A stretch of 64,000 nt of DNA from an uncultured Candidatus Saccharibacteria bacterium (lineage in GTDB: Bacteria; Patescibacteriota; Minisyncoccia; Phycocordibacterales; Phycocordibacteraceae): NCBI GenBank assembly GCA_964360855.1, contig CAYHXV010000001.1, forward strand, positions 20,042-84,041. Reading direction: 5' to 3'. Within the stretch, counting starts at the first letter, position 1, and every line of letters begins with the position of its first letter. Made by a program: the position numbers and the translations under genes. Below the pieces are notes generated by a model. It was not told where the DNA came from, did not search any database, and saw nothing but the letters and a program-made list of their open reading frames with translations. Shown here piece by piece: positions 4,223 through 62,642 of this stretch.

Positions 4223-6964
4223 TTACTTGATTCGACTAGTAAAGGCTTGTGGATCAATCACCCCAATCATTTCTGGACCCTCGGGAGTCACTCCAACATG
4301 AAACCCCGTACGAGGATCAAACACTGCACTGGTAATCCACTTCTGAGGGATACCGTTGTACATAGTGAGCTTCCCTGCTTCAAAGTATATTTTTTCACCG
4401 GGGTGTTCTCGCGCAAGTTCTTGTACCCGCCTCAAGAATTCGTTATTGGTGGCGTCCCCGCCGCCATACACCAACAGCTGCCTGCCGCCGGGCGCGGACT
4501 CATCCGGCACCCCATACAAGTGGGTCACTGCTGGCTCCACAGGAACCTGGTGTTCGTTTACGAATGGCTCAAGTGCGGACTGTACCGGAGCCTCAGGGGT
4601 AGCTGGGGGTAATTGCTCTGGGGCCGGAGGAGTAACCGTCGCCTGTTCAGGAACTGGTGCTGAGGGTGGAACCTGTTCAGGAACCAGAGCCGCAGGCTCG
4701 CTTGGTAGAGTGCTGTCTAGCTCTTCAGGCTGGGTGAGTGTGTTGTGATCAGAACCATCTACAAACGTCTCAGGAGTAAGTATGGGTGTTCCGCCCGCTT
4801 GTGCACGGTTGAGAGCGGCACTAGGATCTTCAACTGGTGCCGCCGCAACCTCGGGAGAGTGACTTGGTGCCTCCTGAATAGAAGCGTGGTGGCGCAAGTC
4901 TGGCTGCATGGGTCCATCAATGTGCTTGGTCACATACCCGTCCGGAGCTTCAGCGGTTGGTGCAGTGTGTTCAAAAACCAATTGTGGGTCCTTGCCCACC
5001 GCCTGATACCAGACATGCTGGTCGCTATCCACAAAGAGCTTGTCTCCAGGCTGCAGAGTAAGACTCTGTCCATCATGCGCCGCCCCTAGAGCATGCGTGA
5101 GGGCATTGGGGTTTTGCTCTAGGAAGTGTTTCAACTCAGGAGACGCGTGTTCAAGTGTCCCAACTTGGTGCCGCAAATCCACCAACAGTTGTCCGAACCC
5201 TTCTCCTGGTTTGGTACTTACCTCAAGCACTGAAGTGCTTGGTGCAGTTGGGTGCACGGGTGCAGCCTCTGTCCCTGTGTTGAGGGGTGCGCCCTCGTGG
5301 GGGGCTGGGGCTGCTGCTGCAGGCACGTCTAGATCAGTGCCTTGGTGAGTTGGGGTGGCATATTCGTATGATGCTGATGCTCCCCCAAACAGGTGATGGG
5401 TGTCTGGTGCTTCTACGCTGTGCTCGTGTCCCCCAGACGCATGATGACCAAAAAGAAATCCTAAGCCAAGTGAGGTAAAAGCACTTGCAATACGACTCTG
5501 ACGAGCAATTGATTCCTTAACTACAAGTGCCTCTTTTCTCTTTTGAGAAAGACGGCGCAAATTTTTCTCGTCTCCTAAATCACCAAGATCCTTTCGATTA
5601 GAAAGAAGTGCAGAAGCTTTTGTTTCAGTTCCTCGAAAATCATGGCCCTTCTCTATACCCATTTTAACCAGTGCACCAAAAGCACCACCCACACTGGTGA
5701 ACCGAGAAGCGCCTCCAATCCATTTCTTTGCTTCTGGATTCTTGCTTTTTTCTGCCCAAAATCGAAGCGCTGCAGACGTACCCGCAAGACCCAGCGGCGC
5801 AAGTCCAATGACACTTCCGCCAAGAAGGACGCCCGCAGCCGCACCAACACCAAGGAGAGCAGCGGATGTACCAAAAATACGCACTGCCGGAGGAAGTTCC
5901 TTATACCGTTCATAAAACTTATCGAGAGCTTTCTTGTCTCGCTCGTTAAGTCCCTCCTGGCGCTTTTCTAGCTCCCGTTCCTCAAGACCGTCCACAAACG
6001 TGCGCATGGTTACTACGCGTTCATACCGTTCCCGTAGTTTACTTTCATCAATAGAGCCCTTTCCCTTGTATTTCTTTAAACTTTCCAGAACGGCTTCTTT
6101 GGAGCGAGGTCGAAGTGCAAGTCGTGTGTCTAGGGCGGCCTGTTGCGCGGTGTAGTGCTCTGCGCGTGCGCGCACCCAGGCACGTCGTAGGTCCTTAATC
6201 TGAGTTGGAGTACCAAGCTCACCCACATAATTCTCAAGGGCAATGCCCGCAACACCTCGACCCTTGTGATATTCCTTCAACTTCTCGAAGTACAAACTTT
6301 CGGCGTTCTTAGATATTTCTTGCCGTTCCCCAAGTTCGCGCATTCGTCCAGGTACAAATGCCCGAAAAGGGTCTGTGCTTTGTGCTAACCGCGCCTTCTC
6401 ACTTGCAACGGCTTCTTCAAGAGCCGCTCTGGTCTCATGCGCAGTAGCATCTAGCGGTAAACCAGTTTCCGGATCAGAGTCACGCAGCATATCAGAAATA
6501 TCTGCCTTCTTTTCAACGATCTGCTCAACAGGCTCTTCTTGAGCAGTTGGAGCATCATCGAGAGGCACAGTCGGCGACTCTTCTGGTTGCAGCCGCTTCT
6601 TTAGCTTTTCTGGTTTAATTCCAAGAAACTTCGGTTTAGGTCCATCTTTAAAATCTGATTCTTTCTTAGGTGTCCCTCTTTTCCTGCGTGCTGCATCTCG
6701 AGCGCCTTTTGGTTTTCCGCCAAGACTCACGCGCACCTTTTCAGCTTCGTCTTGTATTGTGGGACCATCATTTGATACTGCTGCATTGCGGAGCGCCTCC
6801 TGAGCTCTCTCAAGATCCGTGAGGGGTGCTTTCTCAATCACTACCTCCGGCTGATTGATACCTGCTCGACGCGCCAAATCACTGAGACGATTCAATGGGC
6901 CTGATTCTGGACTCTTGGGTGCCATAGAATTAGGAAAGGTACCGCGCTCTAATAGTGCTTTCAA
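4223..6964 (-). CDS. Large membrane/low-complexity protein (913 aa); putative structural partner of the VirB4-family ATPase
   Basis: Lys/Glu-rich N-terminal ~380 aa. Central hydrophobic segments (IFGTSAALLGVGAAAGVLLGGSVIGLAPLGLAGTSAAL; ASAFTSLGLGFLF). A Pro/Ala/Glu-rich low-complexity region with nucleotide-level short repeats. Globular C-terminal ~100 aa. It overlaps the upstream ATPase gene by 35 nt, suggesting translational coupling. Confidence 0.7.
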   Translation of the reverse strand: MKALLERGTFPNSMAPKSPESGPLNRLSDLARRAGINQPEVVIEKAPLTDLERAQEALRNAAVSNDGPTIQDEAEKVRVSLGGKPKGARDAARRKRGTPKKESDFKDGPKPKFLGIKPEKLKKRLQPEESPTVPLDDAPTAQEEPVEQIVEKKADISDMLRDSDPETGLPLDATAHETRAALEEAVASEKARLAQSTDPFRAFVPGRMRELGERQEISKNAESLYFEKLKEYHKGRGVAGIALENYVGELGTPTQIKDLRRAWVRARAEHYTAQQAALDTRLALRPRSKEAVLESLKKYKGKGSIDESKLRERYERVVTMRTFVDGLEERELEKRQEGLNERDKKALDKFYERYKELPPAVRIFGTSAALLGVGAAAGVLLGGSVIGLAPLGLAGTSAALRFWAEKSKNPEAKKWIGGASRFTSVGGAFGALVKMGIEKGHDFRGTETKASALLSNRKDLGDLGDEKNLRRLSQKRKEALVVKESIARQSRIASAFTSLGLGFLFGHHASGGHEHSVEAPDTHHLFGGASASYEYATPTHQGTDLDVPAAAAPAPHEGAPLNTGTEAAPVHPTAPSTSVLEVSTKPGEGFGQLLVDLRHQVGTLEHASPELKHFLEQNPNALTHALGAAHDGQSLTLQPGDKLFVDSDQHVWYQAVGKDPQLVFEHTAPTAEAPDGYVTKHIDGPMQPDLRHHASIQEAPSHSPEVAAAPVEDPSAALNRAQAGGTPILTPETFVDGSDHNTLTQPEELDSTLPSEPAALVPEQVPPSAPVPEQATVTPPAPEQLPPATPEAPVQSALEPFVNEHQVPVEPAVTHLYGVPDESAPGGRQLLVYGGGDATNNEFLRRVQELAREHPGEKIYFEAGKLTMYNGIPQKWITSAVFDPRTGFHVGVTPEGPEMIGVIDPQAFTSRIK

Positions 6965-9656
6965 CCAACGCGCGATCTCTTCCGTAGGTAAGGAAGGATA
7001 GTTCGCGCAAGTCGTCTACTTGATCTGGATTGCCTGGACGCAGGTCAACCGTCTTCATGTTGAAGGGCTTTTGCGGAACTCCGCCAGAGAGAATACGCAT
7101 ATATGCATTGCGATTCTCAATATTAACGAAGTCGAGAGCGGTGAACACCGGAGCAAACTGTTTTGCAAAGAACTCCGCATCTTCCTCTCCCACGCGAAAT
7201 ACCGCCATGTTGCCCACGTTGCCAAATATAGCTCCCCTAATCTTCTCGTCTACTTGCGCTAAATACTGGTGCGCAATAGTGAGCGAGAGTTTATATTTTC
7301 GAGCTTCAGAAAGAATGCCGGGAATAGAGGAGGTGGTGATGTTCTGGAACTCATCAATGTAGAGGTAGAACGGTGGGAAGTTGGTACCCACTGAGTCTGC
7401 TCGAGAGAGTGCCGCCATGAACAACTTGCCCACAATAATGAGACCGAGGAGGTTAGCGTTTCGCTCTCCCAATCTTCCCTTTGAAAGATTTACCAGCAGA
7501 ATCTTCTTGTTGTCTATAATCTCACGGAACTTAAACGAGGACTCTTGCTGCCCAATGATCGGCCGCATGAAGTCGTTTGAGGTGAACTCATCAATCTTGT
7601 TGGTGATGTAGGGCACTAAATTCTGAAGCGATGCCTCACCCTCGGTCTTGGTGGCAATTTCATTCCAGAACTGATTCACCACCGGGTTGTTGCAGCGAGA
7701 AAGTTTTAGATTCCTAAATTCTGCGTTAGACATCACCCGACCAATGTCCATAAGGGTGGAGCCGGATGCAGGATCCTCCATTACTAACTGTGTTGCATTG
7801 GTGAAATACTGCACGAACATTGGTCCCATTGATTCAGGAACATCGCCATACAACTGTTGGAATATTGCCAGCATCTCATTCACAATGAACGACTTCTGCT
7901 CCGGTCTGCTCGGATCGTACTCAAGCATATTGAGTCCGAACGGTCGGTCTAGGTTTGCGGGATCAAAGTAAATAACATCCTCGTATCGCTCTGGCGGAAT
8001 GCTGGCCAGTACTTCTATAACATCGTTTCCGTGCGGATCGATAAAACAGACGCCATTGCCTGCGCGAATATCCTGATCAATAAGGGTACGGAGCATTCCG
8101 GACTTTCCCGAGCCCGTCTGTCCAATAACATATAAGTGTCGCAACCGGTCCTCTGGTGAAAGACGTATCTCAGATTCTTGTCCACGATAGGTGCTGGTAC
8201 CAAGTATCGTGCCCTCGGTAGGAAGTCCAATAGGAGCAGGGGCGCTCGCTGAGCGGGACTGCTTCAAATGCGGCGAAGACTCAATACCATCGGGAGGGAA
8301 GTGGAATACGGTGGTGAGCTCTCGAAGAGACAGAGGAAGGTTCGTGGCTTTCTCAAATAAACGAAAGGTGAAGTCACGAAAGAAACTCTTGAGACTCCCT
8401 GTATTTGGTCTACGAAATTCAAACCTGTTCCCTTTAGTATTTTCAAACTGATTAAACGGAGCTTCTATTTCAGCAAGGAGCTGCTCCGCACGCTCCTTCT
8501 GCATAGACGAAGCAACGATACGTATATTTGTCTGCACAATGGGAGCCGAGCGTTTTTTCTCCACCTGCTCAATTGCGGCTTCGTCCGTGGGTCGGATCTC
8601 GTCCAACTTTTTCGGAGACACAAACAAGCCTGCCGCCTCGCGAGCAAATTCACCCGCAAGAGTTTCTGGCAATGAAAATGCCCTTCCGCGCTTCTCACCC
8701 TTTCGCAGCTCATGCAGTATGCGCCCATAGTGCTCCACATAGTGGTTGCCGTTTGGTTTGAAGATAATTTGAAGAGACGCGCCCTCGTCCTCGGGAGCAA
8801 TCTTGGCGAAAGCGTTTAGAAGCGCATTCAGTGGGTCATAATCAAAATCCTGGTAGTCTTTGAGGGGCAACATTGGTCTATCTTTGAACTCCGCCACCGA
8901 ACCAGCAGCAGATCCCCCATCAACAAAGACGTTATAGTCGTTTGGTTGTGCTAAGGCCACCGCCTCAGGGAATATGGCATGCAGTTGTTTCTCGAACAGA
9001 TCGCAGCGAGAGTTTGGCACCGAGGCATAAAACATTAAGTGAGAGCGATCCACCGGTACTGCCAACTCAAGCGTCATATACGCGGGCTCACCGCTACGAG
9101 CTGTCTCAAGCGAAAGCATGCCTGAATAAAACTGTTCCATGCCAGAAACCAGTTCCCGCAGGGGGCGCACCCTGTTCCCTTCCTCCGTCTTGTGTTCGGG
9201 AAGCGCTATCTCATACAGCGTCATGTGCAGAGCCTTCCACTCTGGCTGATTCTCTGCGAGTCCCTGTATAGGCATACCGGCAATAAGGTACTGTACGAGG
9301 AAACGGTGGAAGTCGTCGTCCAAGTGCGGACTAGCGAGCTTCTCTAGTACCGCAAAGGCGTTGCGCACCCCTTTCTGTTCTAGCACCCCGCGCAGTTCAT
9401 TAATCGTCTCGTCCGAGCTTGCGGGATCAAGATTAAGGACAAGCTTTTCGGTCTCCTCGTGCGTTAGTGCATACCCCGGTGCAAAGGTATCCTCAGGAGC
9501 CGCGTACCGGTGGTGCACAATACGCTCTCGGGCAACCTCGGTACGTGGCCGTGATTCATTAAGCACTGCAAGTTCTGCTTCCTTGCTCGCAATTTGCTCA
9601 CGCAAATACGCAAGTTCCTCCTCGGGTGAGGTGATTGGGTTCAGGGGCCCTTCCAT
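6930..9656 (-). CDS. VirB4/TraC-like type IV secretion ATPase (FtsK/HerA superfamily; VirB4 vs VirD4 not resolved)
   Basis: 908 aa. Walker A GQTGSGKS is followed by CFIDPHGNDV (a T4SS DPxG motif). Walker B is FYLYIDEFQN. An ARKYKLSLTIAHQ (RK...AHQ) motif is present. The soluble ~500-aa N-terminal domain has no TM helices, which favours VirB4-like over coupling-protein architecture. Confidence 0.75.
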   Translation of the reverse strand: MEGPLNPITSPEEELAYLREQIASKEAELAVLNESRPRTEVARERIVHHRYAAPEDTFAPGYALTHEETEKLVLNLDPASSDETINELRGVLEQKGVRNAFAVLEKLASPHLDDDFHRFLVQYLIAGMPIQGLAENQPEWKALHMTLYEIALPEHKTEEGNRVRPLRELVSGMEQFYSGMLSLETARSGEPAYMTLELAVPVDRSHLMFYASVPNSRCDLFEKQLHAIFPEAVALAQPNDYNVFVDGGSAAGSVAEFKDRPMLPLKDYQDFDYDPLNALLNAFAKIAPEDEGASLQIIFKPNGNHYVEHYGRILHELRKGEKRGRAFSLPETLAGEFAREAAGLFVSPKKLDEIRPTDEAAIEQVEKKRSAPIVQTNIRIVASSMQKERAEQLLAEIEAPFNQFENTKGNRFEFRRPNTGSLKSFFRDFTFRLFEKATNLPLSLRELTTVFHFPPDGIESSPHLKQSRSASAPAPIGLPTEGTILGTSTYRGQESEIRLSPEDRLRHLYVIGQTGSGKSGMLRTLIDQDIRAGNGVCFIDPHGNDVIEVLASIPPERYEDVIYFDPANLDRPFGLNMLEYDPSRPEQKSFIVNEMLAIFQQLYGDVPESMGPMFVQYFTNATQLVMEDPASGSTLMDIGRVMSNAEFRNLKLSRCNNPVVNQFWNEIATKTEGEASLQNLVPYITNKIDEFTSNDFMRPIIGQQESSFKFREIIDNKKILLVNLSKGRLGERNANLLGLIIVGKLFMAALSRADSVGTNFPPFYLYIDEFQNITTSSIPGILSEARKYKLSLTIAHQYLAQVDEKIRGAIFGNVGNMAVFRVGEEDAEFFAKQFAPVFTALDFVNIENRNAYMRILSGGVPQKPFNMKTVDLRPGNPDQVDDLRELSFLTYGRDRALVESTIRARYLS

Positions 9657-9659
9657 GCC

Positions 9660-9700
9660 TTTAATTATACGACAGAGTCGCTAGTTCTAACGACAAAAAC
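9660..9700 (-). promoter_or_regulatory. Candidate promoter with perfect TATAAT close to the ATPase start (short leader)
   Basis: The minus-strand reading ...gtcgTATAATtaaaggcATG places a perfect TATAAT about 7 nt before the start codon. The -35 is weak (TTAGAA). Confidence 0.3.
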
Positions 9701-9714
9701 TGTATACAAACAAA

Positions 9715-10053
9715 CTACTCCCCCTTGCGAATAATGATATGAAAGAATCCGTTCACCACAGACACCACAATAGAGAAGAGTACCGCAATCCAGAATCCAC
9801 CAATAGAGAAGTCTGGCACCAACAGATCTGCCAGCATCACCAATAGTGCATTGATAACGAGAGAGAAGAGTCCCAGGGTAAGGATAGTAACCGGAAGAGT
9901 GAGAACGGTAATGATGGGCTTCAAGAAAATGTTAAAGACTCCAAGCACTATCGCCAACACAATTGCGCCAAGCAGAGTGACGTGCACACCAGGGACTATG
10001 TAGGCAGCAATGAGTATGGCAACGACAGAAACAATCCAGTGTATGAGCGTCAT
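9715..10053 (-). CDS. DUF360 / phage-holin-4-like small membrane protein
   Basis: 112 aa with four predicted TM helices. The sequence pattern resembles the YvlD/DUF360 family. Confidence 0.55.
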   Translation of the reverse strand: MTLIHWIVSVVAILIAAYIVPGVHVTLLGAIVLAIVLGVFNIFLKPIITVLTLPVTILTLGLFSLVINALLVMLADLLVPDFSIGGFWIAVLFSIVVSVVNGFFHIIIRKGE

Positions 10054-44818: not shown

Positions 44819-45769
44819 TCAATACAACGAGAAGTGGCTTCCGGTTATGTGCCCATATCCGTTATCGCTCTTACAATACGCAGATATTCCTTTTGCTCGA
44901 GCAGCGTCACGGAGTGCGCAATCAAAAGTCTCAAAGACGGGACGTAGTCCCGCCAGCTGCGCTGCTGCAGCAAAGGAAGCAATGTTTGCAGCTGTATAGG
45001 TGGTGGGACTTCTGAACGAAGCATCAATACAGGTCCCATTCGCGTGGCATTTGTTGGTATGTGTTGACGTCGGAGGGAATGCCTCCGTTACCACCCAGGT
45101 GCCATTAAAGGTGGTATTGAGTTTCCCTATCTTTGGTGCAACGTTAGGATCAAGAGTGCAGTTGTTCGTGCACGTCACTCCATACGTCTTTAGTGAGACA
45201 CACGTAGGACATCCGGCAGTTCCGGTAGTGGTGCCTCCCGGCGTCGGTGTATTGACCACGAGCTGAGCGGCAGTAATTGCTCCAGAGAAAAGCTTCTGTG
45301 TTTCTGATTCCACAACGCAGGCCGAACCATTCCGCAATATACTATTCCACGGCCCCCACCCCGACTCGTTTGGGTTGTATAGCGTCTTCATAACAAAATC
45401 AACCATGAGCCAGGCGGTGAGCATGATGAGTAGCCCAATCGCCGCATTCCCGAGCATCTTCTTTGCACTACTGCGCGCTTCGGGATTGACTCCAGAAATA
45501 ATAAATAGGAACCCTGCCCACGCAATGATGATGGTGAAAATAAGAACACCAAATGAGATGCCAACGTTAATGAAGCGCTGTGCTATTTCCATAACTGCAC
45601 CAAAGGACAATGGAGCACCCTCAGGGCATGCAGGATCTATGTCGTGTGCACTGGGAACAATGTGGAAATTACTATCCAAGCTTGTTCCACTTGCCGCATG
45701 TGCAAAAGGCACCGCTACAGTACTGCCAAGCAATATGAGGAGGGTGATTACTAGTGTTCGGATATGCAT
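44819..45769 (-). CDS. Secreted TrbC/VirB2-like pilin module fused to Cys-rich C-terminal domain of unknown function
   Basis: Signal peptide. The N-terminal ~150 aa are paralogous to 46318..47322 (GISFGVLIFTIIIAWAGFLFI...NPEARS.AKKML.NAAIGLLIMLTAWLMVDFVMK.LY...WGPWNSIL). The C-terminal 150 aa are Cys-rich (CPTCVS...C.NNC...KCHANGTC) and end ...YGHITGSHF. Confidence 0.6.
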   Translation of the reverse strand: MHIRTLVITLLILLGSTVAVPFAHAASGTSLDSNFHIVPSAHDIDPACPEGAPLSFGAVMEIAQRFINVGISFGVLIFTIIIAWAGFLFIISGVNPEARSSAKKMLGNAAIGLLIMLTAWLMVDFVMKTLYNPNESGWGPWNSILRNGSACVVESETQKLFSGAITAAQLVVNTPTPGGTTTGTAGCPTCVSLKTYGVTCTNNCTLDPNVAPKIGKLNTTFNGTWVVTEAFPPTSTHTNKCHANGTCIDASFRSPTTYTAANIASFAAAAQLAGLRPVFETFDCALRDAARAKGISAYCKSDNGYGHITGSHFSLY

Positions 45770-45772
45770 ACG

Positions 45773-46321
45773 CTAAGGGAGCTTCACCGCACCCGGACAG
45801 AAACTGAGTCCAAGATTCTCATACTGCGAGTACACCTCACTCACGTCTGGCGTCACCGATATAATCGTATTTAAACTACAGAGCTCGCTATCCGAGAGCG
45901 CAAGCAAGTTTCTCAAGTACGTTTGTGCTTCTAACCGAGCTGCTCCAATAGGCTCGGCAATAAGTATTATGAGAAATTGTGAATCAGATTCAGAATACTG
46001 AATCGAGAAGGTGAATCCTTCGGTAGAATATTCCGGTCCGTATAAGTTATAGAATCGCCCACCAGGGGTATCCAGTGGTTCTTTTCCAGACAAGACGTTG
46101 GGTACCATTACCGCTTCTCCACTCCTCGCATGGACACTCATCGTCTTTGGCACGTACGTGGTGCTTCCTCCAGGATTCAGAATTCCTCCAAAGGGATTGA
46201 GAGGTTGCGTGCTCCCTGGTGACTGCCGTCCAAACATCTGAAGGCCCACATAGCCAAGTACACCAATACTCAGAACAATGAGCACGACCGCAACCACAAT
46301 AATAAGTCTCTGCTTCGTCAT
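45773..46321 (-). CDS. Membrane-anchored hypothetical protein in the pilin-fusion operon
   Basis: N-terminal TM (LIIVVAVVLIVLSIGVLGYVGL). Stop/start overlaps with both flanking genes. Confidence 0.55.
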   Translation of the reverse strand: MTKQRLIIVVAVVLIVLSIGVLGYVGLQMFGRQSPGSTQPLNPFGGILNPGGSTTYVPKTMSVHARSGEAVMVPNVLSGKEPLDTPGGRFYNLYGPEYSTEGFTFSIQYSESDSQFLIILIAEPIGAARLEAQTYLRNLLALSDSELCSLNTIISVTPDVSEVYSQYENLGLSFCPGAVKLP

Positions 46322-47322
46322 GGTAGTAATGATACCCCACGAGTAATCAGTGTCTGAAGAGCAAGTGGCAGTGGCGTGGAGCCTGCGTCAGCGAGCCCAC
46401 ACTTCCCTGCAGTAGACCACTCCTTCCAGCCGGTGCGCTTGTTGGTCGCAACCGCTTCGGCAATATTGGCACTCGCGGTCTTTGCTGCCGCCACACAGCG
46501 CGCGTAAAGTGCTTCATCCTTCACTCTCGCGGTATAGTTTTTGCCCGTAAAGGCGGAAGGGCAGTTAAGTCCCGCGACAGAATGGTAGGTGAGATTTATT
46601 TGAAATAGACCAAAAGAGAATGCGCGACGTTGAGGATCGTTATGCATGTAGTCACTACCACTAACGCGTTGCACAACACCGCCACTCTCGGCATAGCAAA
46701 TTTGTGCAGCCTGTCTCGCGGTTTCCTCAGAACCAAAAGCTGCAATGAAATTAGTATACGCACACGCTCCACTGGTGGGTATCCGACAACTCCCCGGTCC
46801 TCCTCCTGCCACTCCTGGAGTGCCGCCAGAGGTAGAGAGCTCTGCGGCGGTGATGGCGCCACTGAAGAGCGGTATTGTTTCAAATGAGGTCACACACATG
46901 TCGCCCCCGGTGAGGATACTGTTCCAGGGTCCGAACTCTCCCTTGGTACCATCAGGTCCGCTATAGAGCGCCTTCATAACAAAGTCCACAATAAGCCATG
47001 CGGAGAGCACAATGAGAAGTCCAACAGCAGCATTTATAAGCATCTTGTTTGCTTGGCTTCGAGCCTCGGGGTTTGCAGGTGTGGTGATATAGAGAAACCC
47101 GGCCCACGCAATGATGATAACGGCAAATAAAACACCTATCGATATCCCCCCGTTCACCAGGTTCTGAACGGTTCCTAATACTCCTGCAAATCCGCAGGGG
47201 CACGCTCTGCAGGCTTCGGGTACCAAGCTCCACCCAGAAGAAAGAAAGGGCATATCTGCAGCTGCCACAGAAAGCGGAAGCACACTGAGTGTTAGTAGGG
47301 AGAGAGCCCGCAACCGATTCAT
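46318..47322 (-). CDS. Secreted TrbC/VirB2-like pilin module fused to lytic transglycosylase/lysozyme-like domain (VirB1-like)
   Basis: Signal peptide plus an N-terminal two-helix pilin-like module paralogous to 44819..45769. C-terminal QICYAESGG...FGLFQIN...Y fits SLT/goose-lysozyme-family catalytic motifs (E-S ... GLMQ-like). Confidence 0.6.
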   Translation of the reverse strand: MNRLRALSLLTLSVLPLSVAAADMPFLSSGWSLVPEACRACPCGFAGVLGTVQNLVNGGISIGVLFAVIIIAWAGFLYITTPANPEARSQANKMLINAAVGLLIVLSAWLIVDFVMKALYSGPDGTKGEFGPWNSILTGGDMCVTSFETIPLFSGAITAAELSTSGGTPGVAGGGPGSCRIPTSGACAYTNFIAAFGSEETARQAAQICYAESGGVVQRVSGSDYMHNDPQRRAFSFGLFQINLTYHSVAGLNCPSAFTGKNYTARVKDEALYARCVAAAKTASANIAEAVATNKRTGWKEWSTAGKCGLADAGSTPLPLALQTLITRGVSLLP

Positions 47323-56683: not shown

Positions 56684-56765
56684 GCCCGGGTGGTGAAATT
56701 GGTATACACGCTTGCCTTAGGAGCAGGTCCCTTCGGGGGTGGAGGTTCAAGTCCTCTCCCGGGCA
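56684..56765 (+). tRNA. tRNA-Leu (anticodon TAG)
   Basis: Acceptor GCCCGGG/CCCGGGC. Anticodon stem CTTGC/GCAGG with loop CTTAGGA. Variable arm CCC-TTCG-GGG. T-arm GGAGG-TTCAAGT-CCTCT. Confidence 0.75.
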
Positions 56766-56881
56766 CACACACTTGACTTTTAGTATTATTTCGTGGTATA
56801 CTGTATTCAGACCCTAGCTCCTTGAAAGCATCAAGGTGCGGGTATTCATCAACCGGAACATAGGCCAAGGAGGCCACCTCG

Positions 56882-57964
56882 ATGTCCCTACTCACCACGA
56901 CTATGATTGCGGGTGGCGTTGCGCTTGGAGCCTACTTCGGTGGTCCCTTCGCTCTCGTCCCGCTCGCAAACAACGATACCTTCGTTACCTACATCTCTCC
57001 CGGAGACGGGAAAATGATTCTGAAGGGTGGCGAATTCCATGACTTCTTTATCTCGCTACCAGGTTCTCACCTGAATCGTCCTGGCGCCAGCTACTACGAA
57101 AAGAAGGAGCGGCCGTGGGAAATCCTCCCCAACGCTCCGGGCACCATTGACGACGACTACGATGAGCGTCCAGCGTGGATGAAGACGTTCGGCTACTTCC
57201 CCGTCGGCATTCCGTTCCAACGGAGCGTGAACGAGGAGGTGTTCGAGTGGAAGGAAGAGTCCGGCGGACAAATCATTCCTCGCCGGGAGCTAACGCGTAA
57301 ATTCAAGGTGAATGCCTTCCCGTATGTCATCGTGCAAACGGAAGTCATTTCGCGAGACGGACTCCCCCTACGGCTGACATACATCGTCGGCCTGCGTATC
57401 ATCAATCCACACAAGGCTTTGATCGAAACCGAGGATTGGTTGGTTCAGCTCGAGGCCGCAATCCAACAAGCTGTTCGCAACTGGGCAGCTGGATTCAAGT
57501 TCATGGAGCTCATCTCCCAGACTGATGCTCGCGGCAGTAAAGCCAGAATGAAGGAAAACTTCGAACTAGAAGTGTGCAAGCTTAGCAATGAGATGCGCAT
57601 CAGGTTCGGCGTTGCTGTCGAGACCGCGGACCTGAAGGCTCCCATGCCTGAAGGCCCGAAAGCCCAAGCCCATCTGGACAGTATCGCTGCCCCCTTCGCT
57701 GCCAAGCAAGCCGCGGAGGTGAAAGTGATAGACGCCACTGCGCAAGCGGCGGCCGAGGAAGCGGTTGGGATGGTCAAGGCCAAGGTCGACAAAGCTTTAG
57801 CCGAGGCCGCTGTGGCGGGCGAGGTTGCCCGCTACAAAGCAGCTGAAGAAAACAAGGAAGGCGCATCTGTTGTTATCGCTGGCGAAGCGCTTAAGGGCGC
57901 AACAGTATTTGCGATGCCAGCGGGTGTATCAAAGCTTGTCGACAAGCTGGGCGAAAAACTCTAA
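56882..57964 (+). CDS. Membrane-anchored protein, possibly SPFH/band-7-like
   Basis: AAGGAGG RBS. An N-terminal hydrophobic segment is followed by VIVQTEVISRDGLPLRLTYIVGLRIINPHKALIETEDWLVQLEAAIQQAVRNW, which resembles the SPFH core, and an Ala/Glu-rich coiled tail. Confidence 0.4.
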   Translation: MSLLTTTMIAGGVALGAYFGGPFALVPLANNDTFVTYISPGDGKMILKGGEFHDFFISLPGSHLNRPGASYYEKKERPWEILPNAPGTIDDDYDERPAWMKTFGYFPVGIPFQRSVNEEVFEWKEESGGQIIPRRELTRKFKVNAFPYVIVQTEVISRDGLPLRLTYIVGLRIINPHKALIETEDWLVQLEAAIQQAVRNWAAGFKFMELISQTDARGSKARMKENFELEVCKLSNEMRIRFGVAVETADLKAPMPEGPKAQAHLDSIAAPFAAKQAAEVKVIDATAQAAAEEAVGMVKAKVDKALAEAAVAGEVARYKAAEENKEGASVVIAGEALKGATVFAMPAGVSKLVDKLGEKL

Positions 57965-57977
57965 GGGAGCTGAAGGA

Positions 57978-58739
57978 ATGACTCGTAGGAAGAAAACTAT
58001 CCTTCAGAGAATTCCTCTGGGGGTGAAGCTGCTGATTGGACTCATCATCCTGTCATTTGTAATCGCGATGATGGGTAAGTCCTCGGCTCCGGTGGAAACC
58101 GGTCTCTGGATCTTCACCATCATCCTTGTAGTGAGCGCAGTAGTGCTGATTCTCGTTGCTCTCTTCGTCTCCTATCGAAAGAAGGGGGAACAAAAAAGAG
58201 CACGTGACGAGCGCGTTCAAGAAGTGGATACCAACGCGGATAAGGCTCATACGCCACCCCCAACCGCTCCACCGGCTCCGGCCGGTGGGCACACCAGCAA
58301 GAGTGGGGGTCTGCTTCGCTTCTCCTTCAACCTTCTGGTCCTCGGTCTCGTGTGCCTCGTGCTGTGGTTCTTCGGAACCCTAGTATACCGGTACATTGGT
58401 CTCGGAGAGGCTCCGGCACTGCGCACACAAAACTCCGGTTTCGTGGCGCAGAGTCCTCGCATACGCCCCTCCCAACCCACTTGGACCTCTGTCAGTGCCC
58501 CAAGCACTGGTTGGCTCGTGGTATCGGTTCTTCCGGGGCACACCCTCTCACACTGCGACCAGGCCACAAGCCTGGTGCGTTGTGCGGCGGCAGACCCCGT
58601 TGGATACCGAGCCAAGTGCACGGACGAACAAGGGCACGACCATCTATGGCCAGAATCCTGCACGAAGACCACCTTCATGTCCTTTCAATCGAAAACGGGT
58701 CAATCAGCCCCCATTCGTCTGAAAGACAATGAACCTTGA
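57978..58739 (+). CDS. Hypothetical membrane protein (253 aa)
   Basis: Start MTRRKKT with AAGGAA RBS. Two to three TM helices, a Pro-rich linker and a C-terminal Cys/His-containing region. Confidence 0.45.
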   Translation: MTRRKKTILQRIPLGVKLLIGLIILSFVIAMMGKSSAPVETGLWIFTIILVVSAVVLILVALFVSYRKKGEQKRARDERVQEVDTNADKAHTPPPTAPPAPAGGHTSKSGGLLRFSFNLLVLGLVCLVLWFFGTLVYRYIGLGEAPALRTQNSGFVAQSPRIRPSQPTWTSVSAPSTGWLVVSVLPGHTLSHCDQATSLVRCAAADPVGYRAKCTDEQGHDHLWPESCTKTTFMSFQSKTGQSAPIRLKDNEP

Positions 58740-58797
58740 TGCACTTGCGCTCTGCGCACACCGCTCTCCCTTCCACAAGGAGAGCGGTTTTTCATGT

Positions 58798-59043
58798 CTA
58801 GGGTGCGCCCACCGTCTGCTTAATAACCGCAATGATGGCATTGGCACCAAATAAAATAACGAGTCCAATGATGCCCCACAACATATGCTGCTGCCCCACC
58901 TTTCGTTTCTCATCATTATCGGCTCCTGCAATAAACTGCACCACCCCCCATGCAAAAAGCACGAATGCAGAAAGCGACAAGAGAACAACGATAGGCATCA
59001 GTATCGCCAATTCTATTTTGGTGAGAAATTGTTGGTATGTCAT
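58798..59043 (-). CDS. TrbC/VirB2-like pilin paralog 1 (81 aa)
   Basis: Two hydrophobic helices flank an acidic/basic loop (FVLFAWGVVQFIAGADNDEKRKVGQQHMLWGIIGLVILFG). Paralogous to the four genes upstream. Confidence 0.55.
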   Translation of the reverse strand: MTYQQFLTKIELAILMPIVVLLSLSAFVLFAWGVVQFIAGADNDEKRKVGQQHMLWGIIGLVILFGANAIIAVIKQTVGAP

Positions 59044-59110
59044 AGGTATATTCTAGCAAACGACCGCACCAAAAAGCGCGGTCGTCCACAGAGAAACTCG
59101 GTTTTCACTC

Positions 59111-59473
59111 CTATCGATTCACATTCGTTGGTGCCGTTGGGTAACTTGGTGTGCGGCTATTTAGATTAACCGAACCGGTAAGGATACTCACCAATCCCCA
59201 TACCGATACCATCACAAAGAACCCAATGAGTCCGTAGAGCATAAGTGCTCTACCTTTCTCTTTTGCTGCCTCATCATTGGCACCAATAATGAACACTTGG
59301 AACACGCCCCAAATGAACACAATAAACGCAAGAGCAAATACCACCGGCACTGCAACAGTGTTGATAAGACCAATTATAAAGGCACCGACATCCTGAACAC
59401 TTCCAACTGTAGTCTGGGCTGCCGCAAGAAATGGCAACGCAAGCAAGGCACCAATAAATCCGAGTTTCTTCAT
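59111..59473 (-). CDS. TrbC/VirB2-like pilin paralog 2 (120 aa, signal peptide)
   Basis: MKKLGFIGALLALPFLAAAQ signal peptide, then VVFALAFIVFIWGVFQVFIIGANDEAAKEKGRALMLYGLIGFFVMVSVWGLV. Confidence 0.6.
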   Translation of the reverse strand: MKKLGFIGALLALPFLAAAQTTVGSVQDVGAFIIGLINTVAVPVVFALAFIVFIWGVFQVFIIGANDEAAKEKGRALMLYGLIGFFVMVSVWGLVSILTGSVNLNSRTPSYPTAPTNVNR

Positions 59474-59557
59474 AGAGAATAGTTAGCTAGATACCTCTAT
59501 AGGATAGACCAGCTGTGGTAAGCGTCAATAGAGTAATGCGTGTACTGGGGAAAACTG

Positions 59558-60043
59558 TTAAATGGATATAAGGGGGTTACTTGAGGACGGTGGCACTTCA
59601 GCTGGTGCTGGATCATTGTTAGGGACAATAGTTTCAAACACATTCTTGTTTTGTGACTCAGTCCCAGCTTTCTGGGTTCCCTGCCCAAAGGTGGGAAAGT
59701 CTGGCGTTCGGTTGTCCAGGTTCCCAAATAAACTTCCGAACAAATTAACGAGTCCCCAAATAGAAATCATCACCGCAAATCCAATAACAGACCAGAGTAC
59801 AAACTTTGCTCCTTCCTTGCGTTTCTCCTCATTTGCACCATTCAATATAAATGCTTGAAAGACACCCCAAATAAATACTATGAACGCAATGGCAAATACC
59901 ACCGGTACCACTACCGTATTTAGGATGCCAATGATGGAAGCTGAAATATCTTCTATAGGGGCCGTGTTCAGTCCTCCAGACTGCGCAGACGCTGAAGGAG
60001 CTCCGAGTACCAGAGCGAGTACGATAAAAAGGTATTTTTTCAT
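59558..60043 (-). CDS. TrbC/VirB2-like pilin paralog 3 (signal peptide; extended C-terminal tail)
   Basis: Start at MKKYLFIVLALVLGAPSASA. Core VVFAIAFIVFIWGVFQAFILNGANEEKRKEGAKFVLWSVIGFAVMISIWGLV is near-identical in pattern to paralog 2. Confidence 0.6.
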   Translation of the reverse strand: MKKYLFIVLALVLGAPSASAQSGGLNTAPIEDISASIIGILNTVVVPVVFAIAFIVFIWGVFQAFILNGANEEKRKEGAKFVLWSVIGFAVMISIWGLVNLFGSLFGNLDNRTPDFPTFGQGTQKAGTESQNKNVFETIVPNNDPAPAEVPPSSSNPLISI

Positions 60044-60092
60044 ATATCCATAGCCTAGCAGGCAACGGGTCTCGCGCAAGACGTTATCCCAC

Positions 60093-60332
60093 CTAGGCGG
60101 GCAGTACGCTCAGCAAGAGCCGTACAATACCCCACACACCAAATAGCACCACAAACCCTATCATGCCCCACAACATGAACACTCTTCCTTTTTGTCTCCC
60201 TTCCTCACCCTCCATAAAGAAGAACCGCACCATACCAATGAGGAAGAGCAGGAAGGCAAGGGCATACAATAGCGGCATCACCGCCGTGTCTACTACCTTC
60301 ACCAAACTATCAACCAATTGCGCAAAGGTCAT
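60093..60332 (-). CDS. TrbC/VirB2-like pilin paralog 4 (79 aa)
   Basis: LLYALAFLLFLIGMVRFFFMEGEEGRQKGRVFMLWGMIGFVVLFGVWGIV. Start overlaps the stop of paralog 5. Confidence 0.55.
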   Translation of the reverse strand: MTFAQLVDSLVKVVDTAVMPLLYALAFLLFLIGMVRFFFMEGEEGRQKGRVFMLWGMIGFVVLFGVWGIVRLLLSVLPA

Positions 60333-60730
60333 CGTAAGGAATCAACGGTAGAACCAATCACCATGCCAATGGTTTGGGCTCCCAGAAGCACCAACCCACC
60401 TATCACCGTCCACATAAGCGCACTGCGCGCGTTCTTAAGCTCCTCTTCTTTTCCTTGTGCCTTAACAAACAGGAAGCCAACATAAACAATAGCGAGGGTA
60501 AGCACAATGGTACCTAGCTGCACCACCGCACCTAAGATGGCATCGAGAAAGTCAGGGAGCGAGTTAATACTGTTGAGCGGGTTGGTAAGGCCACCACCAC
60601 CTGATTCTGGAGCACTAGGAGCGCCTACAGAACTCGTTGCACTGAGGACAAGATGTGGACCCAAAAAACTGAAAGTTAGAAACACTGCCAGGAATCCTAC
60701 CGTACGAAGTGTTTGTAAAAAGTGTTTCAT
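60329..60730 (-). CDS. TrbC/VirB2-like pilin paralog 5 (133 aa, signal peptide)
   Basis: Signal peptide, Gly-rich spacer, then TIVLTLAIVYVGFLFVKAQGKEEELKNARSALMWTVIGGLVLLGAQTIGMV. Start overlaps the stop of the SBP-fold gene. Confidence 0.55.
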   Translation of the reverse strand: MKHFLQTLRTVGFLAVFLTFSFLGPHLVLSATSSVGAPSAPESGGGGLTNPLNSINSLPDFLDAILGAVVQLGTIVLTLAIVYVGFLFVKAQGKEEELKNARSALMWTVIGGLVLLGAQTIGMVIGSTVDSLR

Positions 60731-62028
60731 TTAAATGTTGCGCTAATAGCCTGATCAAGCGTACCAAGAGCGTCGGACACTCCCTGTCGCCCACTCGTCA
60801 CACTACTCACCATGGTAGCAAAGAGAGTGTCCGTCTTTAGTGGTGCTGGGGACAGCCATCCGCGCGCCACCAGTGCCTGCGGGAAATACACGGACTCATA
60901 CAAGTCACCCTGTGCAGGAATAAGTAGCGCACGCTGTGCAGGAACCATGTGGAGTGCACGCGCCAGTGTTGGCAATACCTCTGAAGCAGATAATGCGTAC
61001 GCAGTACGCAGAGCTCCTTCAGGATTAGCAGAGGCCTTAGGTATAGCAAATCCATATATGCGACCATACGTGGTACGGGTTTCAGAAGTAGCGGGGTGCG
61101 GGACTGATGCCATATCAAAGTCTAAGTTTGGATTCCCTGCAGCAATAAGAGACACCTCAGATGCAAACCCAAAGTAGAGGGAGAGGTCACCAGCGAGAAA
61201 CGCCTGTCGGTCTCCCGCAATGCTTCGATTCCAGCTGTAGCTAGTCTTCGCGGGATTTGCAAACTGTAGATAGTAGTTCAATGCAGACACCGCAGGCGAA
61301 GGGCCAGCACTGTCTCCCACGGGGCGGGTAAGCGTTGCCGAGATACTGTCTAGAGTTCGCTCGGTAATAGAGTACCCGGACTGTAACAATAGAAGTGACA
61401 CCACTGCCCGCGCATTCTCACTATTTTCGTATGCACCAAATGCCAGACCACTTCGCACAATCGCTCCTGAAGCATCTTGGCGGGTAAGTACCGGAGACAA
61501 GCCCGCCACTGCTTCCCACGTCGGAGGAGCCACTGCAGCTCCCACACTTGCTAGGTGTGTGCGGTTGTAATACAGGACGAGGGGGTCAAGCACAAACGGT
61601 ATGGCATAGGCGCCCTTGCCCGCGAGAAAGAGTTCCGCCTCGGGTAGATAGGTATCCCGGAAGGTACGCTCACTGGTAGCAGAATTCGAAATGAGTTGAA
61701 TTTTGTTTTGTTCAGCCGCAAGTTGCTCTTGTGAAATAAGAATTAAATCGGGACCATTTCCAGAAGCAATTGCGTCAGACAATTGCTCGTCAAATGTGCT
61801 TAGTTGTTTTTCCTCATAGGACACTTTGGCAAGCTCCCCATGTGTCTGCTTTAAGGTAGCCAGTGCCTCCTGCATCGTTCGCGCGGGCAGGGTGCCCCAC
61901 ACAGTAACTGGCCCCACGGGCTTCACGCCGCCAGTAAATCCTTGGAAGTTTGCAAAGAGAAACAAGCCCACCAGTGCGGTAATACCAAACACCGCCATGA
62001 GAATTATTTGAAAGGGTTTCATTTGCAT
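60727..62028 (-). CDS. Extracellular solute-binding-protein-fold protein (family 1-like), first gene of the pilin array operon
   Basis: N-terminal TM/signal anchor. A segment (GPDLILISQEQL...YAIPFVLDPLVLYYNRTHL) resembles sugar-type ABC substrate-binding proteins. No adjacent permease or ATPase genes. Confidence 0.45.
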   Translation of the reverse strand: MQMKPFQIILMAVFGITALVGLFLFANFQGFTGGVKPVGPVTVWGTLPARTMQEALATLKQTHGELAKVSYEEKQLSTFDEQLSDAIASGNGPDLILISQEQLAAEQNKIQLISNSATSERTFRDTYLPEAELFLAGKGAYAIPFVLDPLVLYYNRTHLASVGAAVAPPTWEAVAGLSPVLTRQDASGAIVRSGLAFGAYENSENARAVVSLLLLQSGYSITERTLDSISATLTRPVGDSAGPSPAVSALNYYLQFANPAKTSYSWNRSIAGDRQAFLAGDLSLYFGFASEVSLIAAGNPNLDFDMASVPHPATSETRTTYGRIYGFAIPKASANPEGALRTAYALSASEVLPTLARALHMVPAQRALLIPAQGDLYESVYFPQALVARGWLSPAPLKTDTLFATMVSSVTSGRQGVSDALGTLDQAISATFK

Positions 62029-62049: not shown

Positions 62050-62583
62050 TTATGCAGGAGCCGTGAACACAATGGAGTAGTGGTGCGGACCGGCACGGAA
62101 GTCCTTCAGCTTGTGAAAACCGTTCGTAATGAATAATTCAAGAGCAGTTGGTTCCGGAACTACATGACGCGGGTGCGGACCCATACCTTCATAACTTCCC
62201 GCCCAATCAATAACGAGAAGCCGTCCTCCTGGCTTGAGGATTCTTTTGATCTCAAGCACAGCAGGAACCTTGTCCTCAAGTTGAAAGAGCGTGTTGGAAA
62301 GAATCACCGCGTCCATTGAGTGTTCCTTGAGCGTGGTGCCACCCTGCTTTTCTATGTTTCCCCACACCGTCTCTATGTTTTTAAGTCCCCGCGTCTGTGC
62401 GTTGTCTAGTAAGTGTCGCAAGACTTCTTCTTGCACATCTATCGCGTACACTCTCCCGGTGTTTCCAACGATATTCGCTGCACTAAGGGCATAGTGCCCC
62501 ACACCACTTCCCAAATCCGCAACCTTCATGCCTTCACGGAGTCCCAACTGAAGGACGTTACTCTGGGGGTCGCTAAAGTTCAT
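62050..62583 (-). CDS. Class I SAM-dependent methyltransferase
   Basis: SAM motif I VADLGSGVGHYAL, plus motif II (RVYAIDV) and post-II motifs (GGRLLVIDW). Confidence 0.75.
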   Translation of the reverse strand: MNFSDPQSNVLQLGLREGMKVADLGSGVGHYALSAANIVGNTGRVYAIDVQEEVLRHLLDNAQTRGLKNIETVWGNIEKQGGTTLKEHSMDAVILSNTLFQLEDKVPAVLEIKRILKPGGRLLVIDWAGSYEGMGPHPRHVVPEPTALELFITNGFHKLKDFRAGPHHYSIVFTAPA

Positions 62584-62642
62584 TACTCTTAAAATAACAC
62601 GAGCCACCCAAAGGGTGGCTCGTATCAACAGGCAAAGATGAG

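Follow-up and report, generated by a model that had tools for sequence, protein, structure and literature searches.

Tandem arrays of genes for small VirB2-like proteins are already known from Patescibacteria, where they were described in 2023 and 2025. A survey reported 441 such arrays of 2-11 genes in 383 patescibacterial assemblies, with a mean mutual identity of 25% and a maximum of 54%, and suggested that they may provide host-range or antigenic versatility; in 1135 of 1948 assemblies, an array was located in or beside the virB4 type IV secretion system (T4SS) cluster (Quiñonero-Coronel et al. 2025, PMC12102498). The six-gene array SEML1_0014-0019 in the T4SS cluster of Southlakia epibionticum was found to be essential (Wang et al. 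2023, PMC10633639; review PMC12857230), and T4SS pilins ranked with the most strongly expressed secreted genes when Paceibacteria were grown in enrichment cultures (PMC10936435). The function of the patescibacterial T4SS has been called "completely unknown", and an import role has been speculated on by specialists (PMC11665869). In this study, we analyzed a 64,000-nucleotide stretch of contig CAYHXV010000001.1 (positions 20,042 to 84,041; referred to as the window), in which a gene for a SAM (S-adenosylmethionine)-dependent methyltransferase (MTase), a gene for a MalE-like solute-binding protein (SBP), and five tandem genes for T4SS pilin-type proteins (p1 to p5) follow one another. Since the MTase, the SBP, and the five pilins were kept together in every relative examined among the Paceibacteria, a broad group of host-dependent, ultra-small bacteria, a partnership between the SBP and a secretion-system filament is suggested.

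As in the survey's definition (PMC12102498), the array in the window is a tandem run of PF18895/PF04956 genes, five in number, with a low mutual identity of 16-49%. It does not lie in or beside a virB4 cluster, and the nearest T4SS-type ATPase gene is ~49 kb away. The accounts of patescibacterial VirB2-like arrays cited above contain no mention of an SBP beside the pilins, and no filament structure of any patescibacterial VirB2-like protein was found in the literature searched. To our knowledge, what appears to be undescribed is an orphan MalE-like SBP and an MTase that are tied to five fixed pilin paralogues across Paceibacteria, together with a transcription layout of a major/minor kind. The window is a piece of chromosome from a Paceibacteria (Parcubacteria, CPR/Patescibacteria) genome and carries the housekeeping genes for GyrA (gyrA), initiation factor IF-2, ClpB, topoisomerase I, class-I lysyl-tRNA synthetase, and ParB as well as seven tRNAs. 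The nearest relatives of its proteins were found in metagenome-assembled genomes (MAGs) labelled 'Patescibacteria group' or 'Paceibacterota'.

A preliminary description of the window had reported, at 58798-62028, five tandem minus-strand pilin-type genes directly after a 433-aa SBP gene. All six open reading frames (ORFs) were recovered at these places in the ORF list, and their families were confirmed. The SBP gene (60727-62028) encodes 433 aa with a membrane-anchored family-1 (CUT1/MalE-like) solute-binding fold. It is followed on the same strand by p1 (60329-60730; 133 aa, with a signal peptide, an NPLN motif, and two transmembrane (TM) helices), p2 (60093-60332; 79 aa, without a signal peptide), p3 (59558-60043; 161 aa, with a signal peptide, two TM helices, and a Pro-rich C-terminal tail), p4 (59111-59473; 120 aa, with a signal peptide and two TM helices), and p5 (58798-59043; 81 aa, without a signal peptide). 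At its full extent, the p3 ORF spans 59558-60079 and gives 173 aa from a TTG. However, the p3 orthologues start at the ATG at 60043, so that this start (161 aa, MKKYLF...) is most likely the real one. The starts and stops had been described as overlapping, which holds for the SBP/p1 and p1/p2 junctions (ATGA) but not for the others, where gaps of 49 nt (p2/p3, with p3 taken from its ATG), 84 nt (p3/p4), and 67 nt (p4/p5) were found. The SBP gene had also been taken as the first gene of the operon; it is preceded by the minus-strand MTase gene (62050-62583), which is the first cistron.

For all five small proteins, PF18895 (T4SS_pilin) was the top Pfam match, with E-values of 5e-8 (p1), 1e-6 (p2), 5e-8 (p3), and 4e-7 (p5). 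Scores for p1 (33.3 bits), p2 (29.2), p3 (33.4), and p5 (30.5) exceeded the gathering cut-off of 26.6 bits, and that for p4 (25.9) fell just under it. Fainter matches to PF04956 TrbC (TrbC/VirB2) were also seen, p1 (4e-4) being the most TrbC-like and the most divergent of the paralogues. Among 35 orthologues, PF18895 was matched by 33 (E<=0.01) and TrbC by 12. The top NCBIfam match of all five was NF045849, the 'pilin-like conjugal transfer protein' of Mollicutes, with E-values of 3e-8 to 8e-5 and scores under the cut-off. Hydropathy analysis placed two TM helices in each of the five proteins and a signal peptide in p1, p3, and p4, and an EEKR-G charged loop between the helices lined up across the pilins. 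The AlphaFold2 (AF2) model of p4 is a helical hairpin (helices 26-63 and 68-102; predicted local distance difference test (pLDDT) score, 67). The earlier assignment of these proteins to the TrbC/VirB2-like pilins was thus borne out, as the profile searches returned a pilin family instead of a holin, stress, or other unrelated family, and we are highly confident that p1 to p5 belong to the T4SS_pilin (TrbC/VirB2-like) family. A hidden Markov model (HMM) of the family returned exactly seven modules in the window, namely the five array genes and the genes at 44819-45769 and 46318-47322, in agreement with the seven copies counted before.

The linkage of the SBP gene to the pilins, which the preliminary description had drawn from one genome, was followed into relatives. 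In 13 of 13 context look-ups, the gene order was gyrA, a small ORF in some cases, the SAM methyltransferase, the SBP, and the PF18895 genes, of which there were mostly five; one of these loci had four contiguous PF18895 genes and a fifth beyond two intervening genes. The order held with SBPs just 30-40% identical to that of the window (30-36% in the look-ups), and the distant loci include MAGs labelled Nomurabacteria, Kaiserbacteria, and GW2011 Parcubacteria. From species-representative genomes, 73 loci were collected by a scan, and their pilins were counted with an HMM built from the window pilins. With duplicates set aside, 66 loci had 1.7 kb or more of downstream sequence, and in all of them 3-7 pilin ORFs stood straight after the SBP on the same strand. 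Exactly five were present in 48 of them, and this HMM found no further pilin ORFs beyond the array within ±7 kb in these 66 loci. The ATGA overlaps or few-nt gaps at the MTase/SBP, SBP/p1, and p1/p2 junctions recurred among species. Judged from gene order, the recurrence in every related locus examined is far beyond chance, and such a strict linkage suggests that the partner of the SBP is a filament of a secretion system instead of a nutrient pump. We also noted IS200/IS605-type Y1 transposase genes between gyrA and the MTase unit in two lineages (locus L005, 6236-6928; locus L080, 3621-4259). The MTase-SBP-pilin operon was intact in both of them.

A related block is listed for a Candidatus Yanofskyibacterium bin, in which the rows PMX_810_sub_00750-00755 give gyrA, an MTase, four PF18895 genes, and tRNA-Leu(tag), with no SBP among them, and all genes of this gyrA-MTase-pilin block are given as transcribed (Kuroda et al. 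2024, Table S2). Since these rows keep the MTase with the pilins in the absence of an SBP, the MTase-pilin link is the wider association, and the SBP is either an insertion into the MTase-pilin operon or a loss from it.

The SBP matched SBP_bac_1 at 3e-16 (60.7 bits against a cut-off of 26), and SBP_bac_8 was also matched. Its AF2 model (pLDDT, 74.7) was submitted to Foldseek, and oligosaccharide SBPs came out on top, with E-values of ~1e-18 and TM-scores of 0.6-0.65. The best matches were 5ci5, 2zyo, 4r9g, 5f7v, and 3puy, and the matched CUT1 proteins include cyclodextrin-, mannooligosaccharide-, and cycloalternan-binding ones and MalE in its transporter complex. By sequence, the nearest PDB match reached just 1.7e-10. 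In an hhalign alignment to Escherichia coli MalE, which covered residues 84-188 alone and left the C-lobe outside, the family-invariant E101 and D148 fell on MalE D65 and E111, both of which are known to hydrogen-bond sugar in MalE. This alignment argues for a retained ligand cleft. Hydropathy analysis placed one TM helix at the N-terminus (residues 8-26), where no lipobox is present, and this anchor was as conserved as the globular part (0.62 versus 0.62 in majority frequency), which would be unusual for a mere tether. The homologues of the SBP were numerous and uniform, with ~430 aa and 50-84% identity. An exhaustive profile search yielded 1463 50%-identity clusters at E<=1e-30, a number that rose to no more than 5113 at E<=1e-3, and the family is therefore a large and discrete one that stands well apart from ordinary CUT1 SBPs.

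The genes of CUT1 SBPs normally adjoin those of their permeases. The SBP gene of the window had been described as lacking an ATP-binding cassette (ABC) permease or ATPase partner, and its location beside ABC transporter genes in relatives would have spoken against the proposed role. Within ±7 kb of the SBP gene, no ORF with the Walker-A and LSGGQ motifs of an ABC ATPase was found in 74 loci, and no BPD_transp_1 permease was found either in these 74 loci or in 13 Pfam-annotated contexts. Only four polytopic ORFs were present in the 74 loci, i.e., a ceramidase-like protein, a DUF1295 protein, and two without a family. The lack of nearby ABC genes thus extends to its relatives. Patescibacterial genomes have been reported to encode 3±3 ABC proteins, and the K02027 SBP, without a cognate permease, is among their retained transporters (PMC7137472). 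Such figures fit a widespread orphan SBP without proving it. A second orphan SBP theme in the candidate phyla radiation (CPR) is provided by literature supplements, which list a family-5 (OppA-like) SBP beside secG in Southlakia (SEML1_0634-0636, with a holin-family gene) and in Yanofskyibacterium (PMX_810_sub_00080-00081); in the same supplements, it is essential in Southlakia transposon sequencing and highly expressed in Yanofskyibacterium.

The relationship among the five pilins was assessed in the 48 five-gene loci: each pilin was searched by BLAST against all the other loci, and the position of its best hit there was compared with its own. The same-position hits amounted to 84% for p1, 73% for p2, 67% for p3, 96% for p4, and 96% for p5, and the remaining best hits of p3 fell mostly on p4. 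The mean core identity was 44-59% within a position versus 17-43% between positions, with p4 as the most conserved paralogue (mean orthologue identity, 58.7%). Within one genome, the pairwise core identity of the five was 16-49%. The closest paralogues had been thought near-identical in their cores, which is true of the first TM helix; overall, the closest pair, p3 and p4, was 48.6% identical, so that the statement was too strong. The positions also differed consistently in architecture. A signal peptide and NPLN marked p1, p2 and p5 were without a signal peptide, and p3 had a variable Pro-rich tail, from which its total length ranged from 115 to 243 aa across the loci; the length of the p1 tail varied between species as well. 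Recent duplication was seen for p5 only, as the arrays of the 6- and 7-gene loci end with additional short copies of the p5 type. On these comparisons, we judge the five pilins to be ancient, non-interchangeable positional orthologues, not fast-varying copies, and their orthology points to specialized subunits.

The array had been taken as one co-transcribed operon headed by the SBP gene. This was not upheld, as conserved promoters and terminators predict at least three units, MTase-SBP-p1-p2-p3, p4, and p5. Upstream of the MTase gene (62584-62630, minus strand, as are all elements below), there is a GC hairpin and an extended -10 element, TGTTATTTT, which ends 7 nt before the MTase ATG. In 61 of 70 loci, variants of this element (TGCTATACT, TGCTATTTT, or TGGTATTTT; TGnTAnnnT) ended 6-11 nt, mostly 6-7 nt, before the MTase ATG, usually preceded by a GC hairpin (mean z, -3.2) and a TTGATT box. 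Nearly all of 68 loci had a distance of -4 to +27 nt from the MTase stop to the SBP start. The MTase unit is thus predicted to give a leaderless transcript, with the hairpin insulating it from the gyrA unit. For p4, an internal promoter is predicted at 59501-59553, which consists of a box, TTTCCCCA (59546-59553), followed by a -35 TTGACG and a -10 TATCCT (59528-59501). Of 46 loci, 41 had the pattern TTGAC-N16-19-TAnnnT (mostly TTGACG…TATCCT) at 25-38 nt ahead of the p4 ATG, versus 0.6% of shuffles, and 38 had the T[GT]TCC[AC]CA box upstream of it; this box could be a regulator-binding site. Within the p4-p5 gap, there is a GC-rich terminator-like hairpin (59060-59087) and an extended -10 element, TGCTAGAAT (59050-59058), which ends 6 nt before the p5 ATG. 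The hairpin in this gap had a mean z of -4.6 and was below -2 in 88% of 42 loci; TGCTAnnAT (TGnTAnnnT) stood 6-8 nt before the p5 ATG in 31 of the 42 versus 4.7% of shuffles, which predicts a leaderless p5 transcript. After p5, a terminator-like hairpin, CCGCTCTCC-N9-GGGAGAGCGG (58761-58787), lies between the convergent genes, and the 60 nt past the last pilin folded with a mean z of -3.6 in 59 loci. A generic promoter/terminator scan of the region found promoters not enriched over shuffles, and the signal came from cross-species conservation alone. Lineages farther away have only a short gap between p4 and p5, so that the separation of p5 may hold for a subclade alone. Leaderless mRNAs are implied as a conserved feature of the clade, because in most species the MTase and p5 starts come 6-7 nt after the end of an extended -10 box.

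The MTase is a generic class-I SAM enzyme (177 aa from its ATG; Pfam Methyltransf_31/11/25), ArsM/UbiE-like and far under every NCBIfam cut-off, and its ORF reaches upstream to a TTG at 62628. Its homologues were 69-96% identical among the best 120 matches, a reach outside of which the lineages without the SBP lie. TraX acetylates F-pilin, and PilD methylates type IV pilins. By analogy to TraX and PilD, we speculate that the MTase modifies the pilins.

As to function, we infer, with confidence that is about even, that p4, together with p5, is the abundant subunit of a filament, that the MTase, the SBP, and p1-p3 form a stoichiometric accessory set, and that the role of the SBP is that of a receptor or adhesin for glycans. 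The locus would be the Paceibacteria form of the patescibacterial T4SS 'pilin' module, with seven genes in three predicted units. The first unit would give a leaderless transcript for a cytoplasmic MTase, the membrane-anchored MalE-like SBP, and p1-p3, and because its genes are tightly spaced or translationally coupled, these proteins are expected in matched, modest amounts. The second unit, p4 alone with its sigma-70-type promoter and hairpin terminator, would supply the abundant shaft subunit, and the third, p5 with its leaderless transcript and extended -10 element, a protein that would stand beside p4 in the filament. The split into major and minor pilins fits this layout. Like VirB2, the pilins would be inserted in the membrane so that their charged EEKR-G loop faces inwards and their two ends face outwards, and a T4SS-type machine encoded elsewhere would extract them into a short filament or a conduit that crosses the wall. 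Together, the SBP and p1-p3 may be a low-copy minor or initiating complex, comparable to the minor pilins and tip adhesin of other pilus systems. The sugar cleft of the SBP would recognize a host-surface glycan or a released oligosaccharide, which would make the SBP an adhesin or sensor and not the receptor of an ABC importer, and the MTase may modify a component of the set. A bolder form, which we consider unlikely, is that the SBP was re-wired from a permease to pilin assembly and stands at the base or tip of the p4/p5 filament, where it docks on host glycan or feeds oligosaccharide into a pilin-lined conduit, with the MTase as a dedicated modifier. If so, the structure would be a T4SS-derived organelle for import or attachment.

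Several points weigh against the filament reading. The neighbourhood from gyrA to IF-2 is syntenic as a whole in the clade, and the adjacency of the SBP to the pilins could therefore be an inherited order instead of a functional link. Because the block listed for Yanofskyibacterium is without an SBP, the SBP is not indispensable to the pilin set. The MTase is more conserved than its neighbour genes, and for this reason an unrelated housekeeping role would also fit it. In a search for the solved conjugative pilins TraA, VirB2, and TrbC, a PDB sequence-profile query with the 35-sequence pilin alignment met only chance matches (E>=0.29), and Foldseek returned nothing below E = 2 for the p4 model, whose pLDDT of 67 and helical-hairpin shape make it poorly discriminated. 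In the literature searched, filament formation by these proteins in any monoderm rests on no structure or experiment. The sole T4SS-type motor gene of the window, at 6930-9656, is the one ~49 kb from the array, and VirB4 and other core T4SS genes are absent from the 64 kb. Finally, the three-unit layout is predicted from motifs.

The SBP could instead serve a carbohydrate ABC importer as a normal receptor, with the permease and ATPase genes elsewhere in the small genome; its place between the MTase and the pilins would then be frozen gene order of no functional significance. In its fold and in the two carboxylates that align with sugar ligands, the SBP agrees with functional CUT1 SBPs; the flanking order of gyrA, MTase, IF-2, and alanine racemase is conserved too; the pilin block of Yanofskyibacterium, as listed, persists without the SBP; and the source annotations and the published survey of transporters (PMC7137472) treat the SBP as a sugar-transport protein. 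We nevertheless regard this possibility as rather unlikely. Not a single ABC gene was found within ±7 kb at the 74 loci, whereas CUT1 SBPs normally adjoin their permeases, and in many species ATGA overlaps flank the SBP gene, which belongs to a run of translationally coupled genes. Its place was kept down to 30% identity while the downstream flank was rearranged, and its family stands sharply apart from other SBPs.

Two further explanations concern the pilins themselves. The five two-TM proteins might stay in the membrane and form, with the SBP anchor, a hetero-oligomer of ~11 helices, i.e., a pilin-derived channel that imports the SBP ligand. Five non-interchangeable paralogues would suit a defined hetero-oligomer better than a homopolymeric filament, and the conserved anchor helix of the SBP, the very few transporters of these organisms (PMC7137472), and the speculated import role of the patescibacterial T4SS (PMC11665869) point the same way. 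But the promoters and the terminator of p4 and p5 imply that the dosage is unequal, as it typically is between major and minor subunits of a filament, the pilin copy number varies from 3 to 7, the wall-hydrolase-like fusions of the pilin module in the window suggest a wall-spanning apparatus, and no energy-coupling component is linked to the array. We hold such a channel to be decidedly doubtful. The preliminary description had named antigenically varied subunits as one option beside major and minor ones, and interchangeable copies that vary antigenically or with host range would agree with the within-genome identity of 16-49%, which lies in the range of the published arrays, and with the p1 and p3 tail lengths that differ between species. 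Antigenic or host-range variation has reportedly been proposed for the VirB2 paralogues of Bartonella and Anaplasma. Here, however, each position is a conserved orthologous family of its own over ~48 species, with same-position best hits of 67-96% and identities of 44-59% versus 17-43%, the positions differ systematically in signal peptide and promoter context, and recent duplication is confined to p5. Since the positional orthology of the five pilins contradicts antigenic variation, that candidate was ruled out, and interchangeability in general seems highly improbable.

Apart from the array, the window carries a gene for a VirD4/TraD-type coupling-protein-like ATPase (6930-9656, minus strand; 908 aa), which matched Pfam DUF87, TraG-D_C, and TrwB as well as NCBIfam TraD (1e-11) and CD1115 VirD4-like (9e-9). 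An assignment of this protein to VirB4 was rejected, as its NCBIfam matches are TraD/VirD4 coupling-protein families. No TM helix was predicted in it. Within the same minus-strand region (4223-10053), it is preceded by a 913-aa low-complexity (Pro/Ala/Glu-rich) protein with one TM helix and no family match, and followed by a Phage_holin_4_2 family gene (9715-10053). The families VirB4, VirB6, and PrgI were not found within ±7 kb in any of the 13 related-locus listings. The two other pilin modules are fusions on the minus strand, with PF18895 scores of 32.3 and 40.6 bits. One of them (46318-47322) combines a signal peptide and the pilin module (PF18895, 2.6e-10) with a weak SLT_3 lysozyme-like domain (0.0019) that contains an AESGG motif, and it is a candidate for a VirB1-like hydrolase of the wall that is held by a pilin anchor. 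The other (44819-45769) has a signal peptide, the pilin module (PF18895, 1.1e-7), and a Cys-rich C-terminal domain without a known family. Both may be wall hydrolases tethered by the pilin module. A 182-aa single-TM protein is encoded between them. Downstream of the array, a convergent pair (56882-58739, plus strand) encodes a 360-aa Band_7/SPFH protein and a 3-TM protein whose ORF has 304 aa versus ~217 aa in relatives; this pair adjoins the array in many relatives, though not in all. A tRNA-Leu(tag) gene lies at 56684-56766, ~2 kb past p5.

Patescibacteria, which live attached to other cells, may account for much of the diversity of bacteria. Their T4SS-like system and its pilin array are essential in the only species that is open to genetics, and a fixed, class-wide partnership between pilins and an SBP would offer a testable handle on this system. 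This handle includes a soluble ectodomain for ligand screening, a prediction of the major subunit, predicted transcription starts, and a candidate modifying enzyme. It also calls for caution in metabolic reconstructions, in which an SBP of this family should not be counted as evidence of sugar ABC transport.

Compared with known systems, the five proteins share with the TrbC/VirB2/TraA pilins of the Gram-negative T4SS a Pfam-level homology, an optional long signal peptide, two hydrophobic helices with a short charged loop, and a small size. However, the present host is a monoderm, and the Gram-negative systems use one subunit whereas five different ones are present here, without genes for a VirB5 tip protein, cyclization, or a TraX-type acetylase and without an outer-membrane core complex. 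The pilin-like proteins Mbov_0395 and MMCAP2_0565 of the integrative and conjugative elements of Mollicutes (NF045849) are likewise small VirB2-like proteins of wall-less or monoderm bacteria, but the window proteins score at most 33 bits against the NF045849 cut-off of 40, and the Mollicutes genes are single genes in mobile elements, in contrast to the chromosomal five-gene set with an SBP. The 'Pam pilus' of a 2026 preprint was considered and set aside as unrelated, since it is a donor-strand-exchange pilus with Ig-like folds.

The SBP resembles the CUT1 SBPs (MalE, GacH, and the Thermotoga and Listeria oligosaccharide SBPs) in its SBP_bac_1/8 match, its predicted two-lobe fold, and its two conserved cleft carboxylates. 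It differs from them in that it has no adjacent permease or ATPase, in that a TM anchor replaces the lipobox, in its distance of E ~1e-10 from the nearest solved SBP, and in its place in a pilin operon. PrgZ/TraC of enterococcal conjugative plasmids and ChvE of Agrobacterium are SBP-fold receptors in T4SS biology that sense an external ligand. PrgZ/TraC are family-5 OppA homologues that still pass peptide to the chromosomal Opp permease, and ChvE signals via VirA. The likeness thus lies in an SBP-fold protein that is tied to a T4SS and senses a ligand, with the feeding of its own transporter not being the main role, but none of these proteins is translationally coupled to pilin genes.

The closest counterparts are the arrays of Southlakia and other Patescibacteria, which are likewise tandem sets of small PF18895/PF04956 proteins with low identity, chromosomal, in monoderm ultra-small hosts, and without a relaxase context. 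The Southlakia array adjoins virB4, virB6, and prgI and has neither an SBP nor an MTase beside it, whereas the array of the window is far from T4SS motor genes and is headed by the MTase and the SBP. The published idea of host-range or antigenic variation does not fit the latter, which differs from the published arrays in that it consists of five fixed positional orthologues with a promoter/terminator layout of their own.

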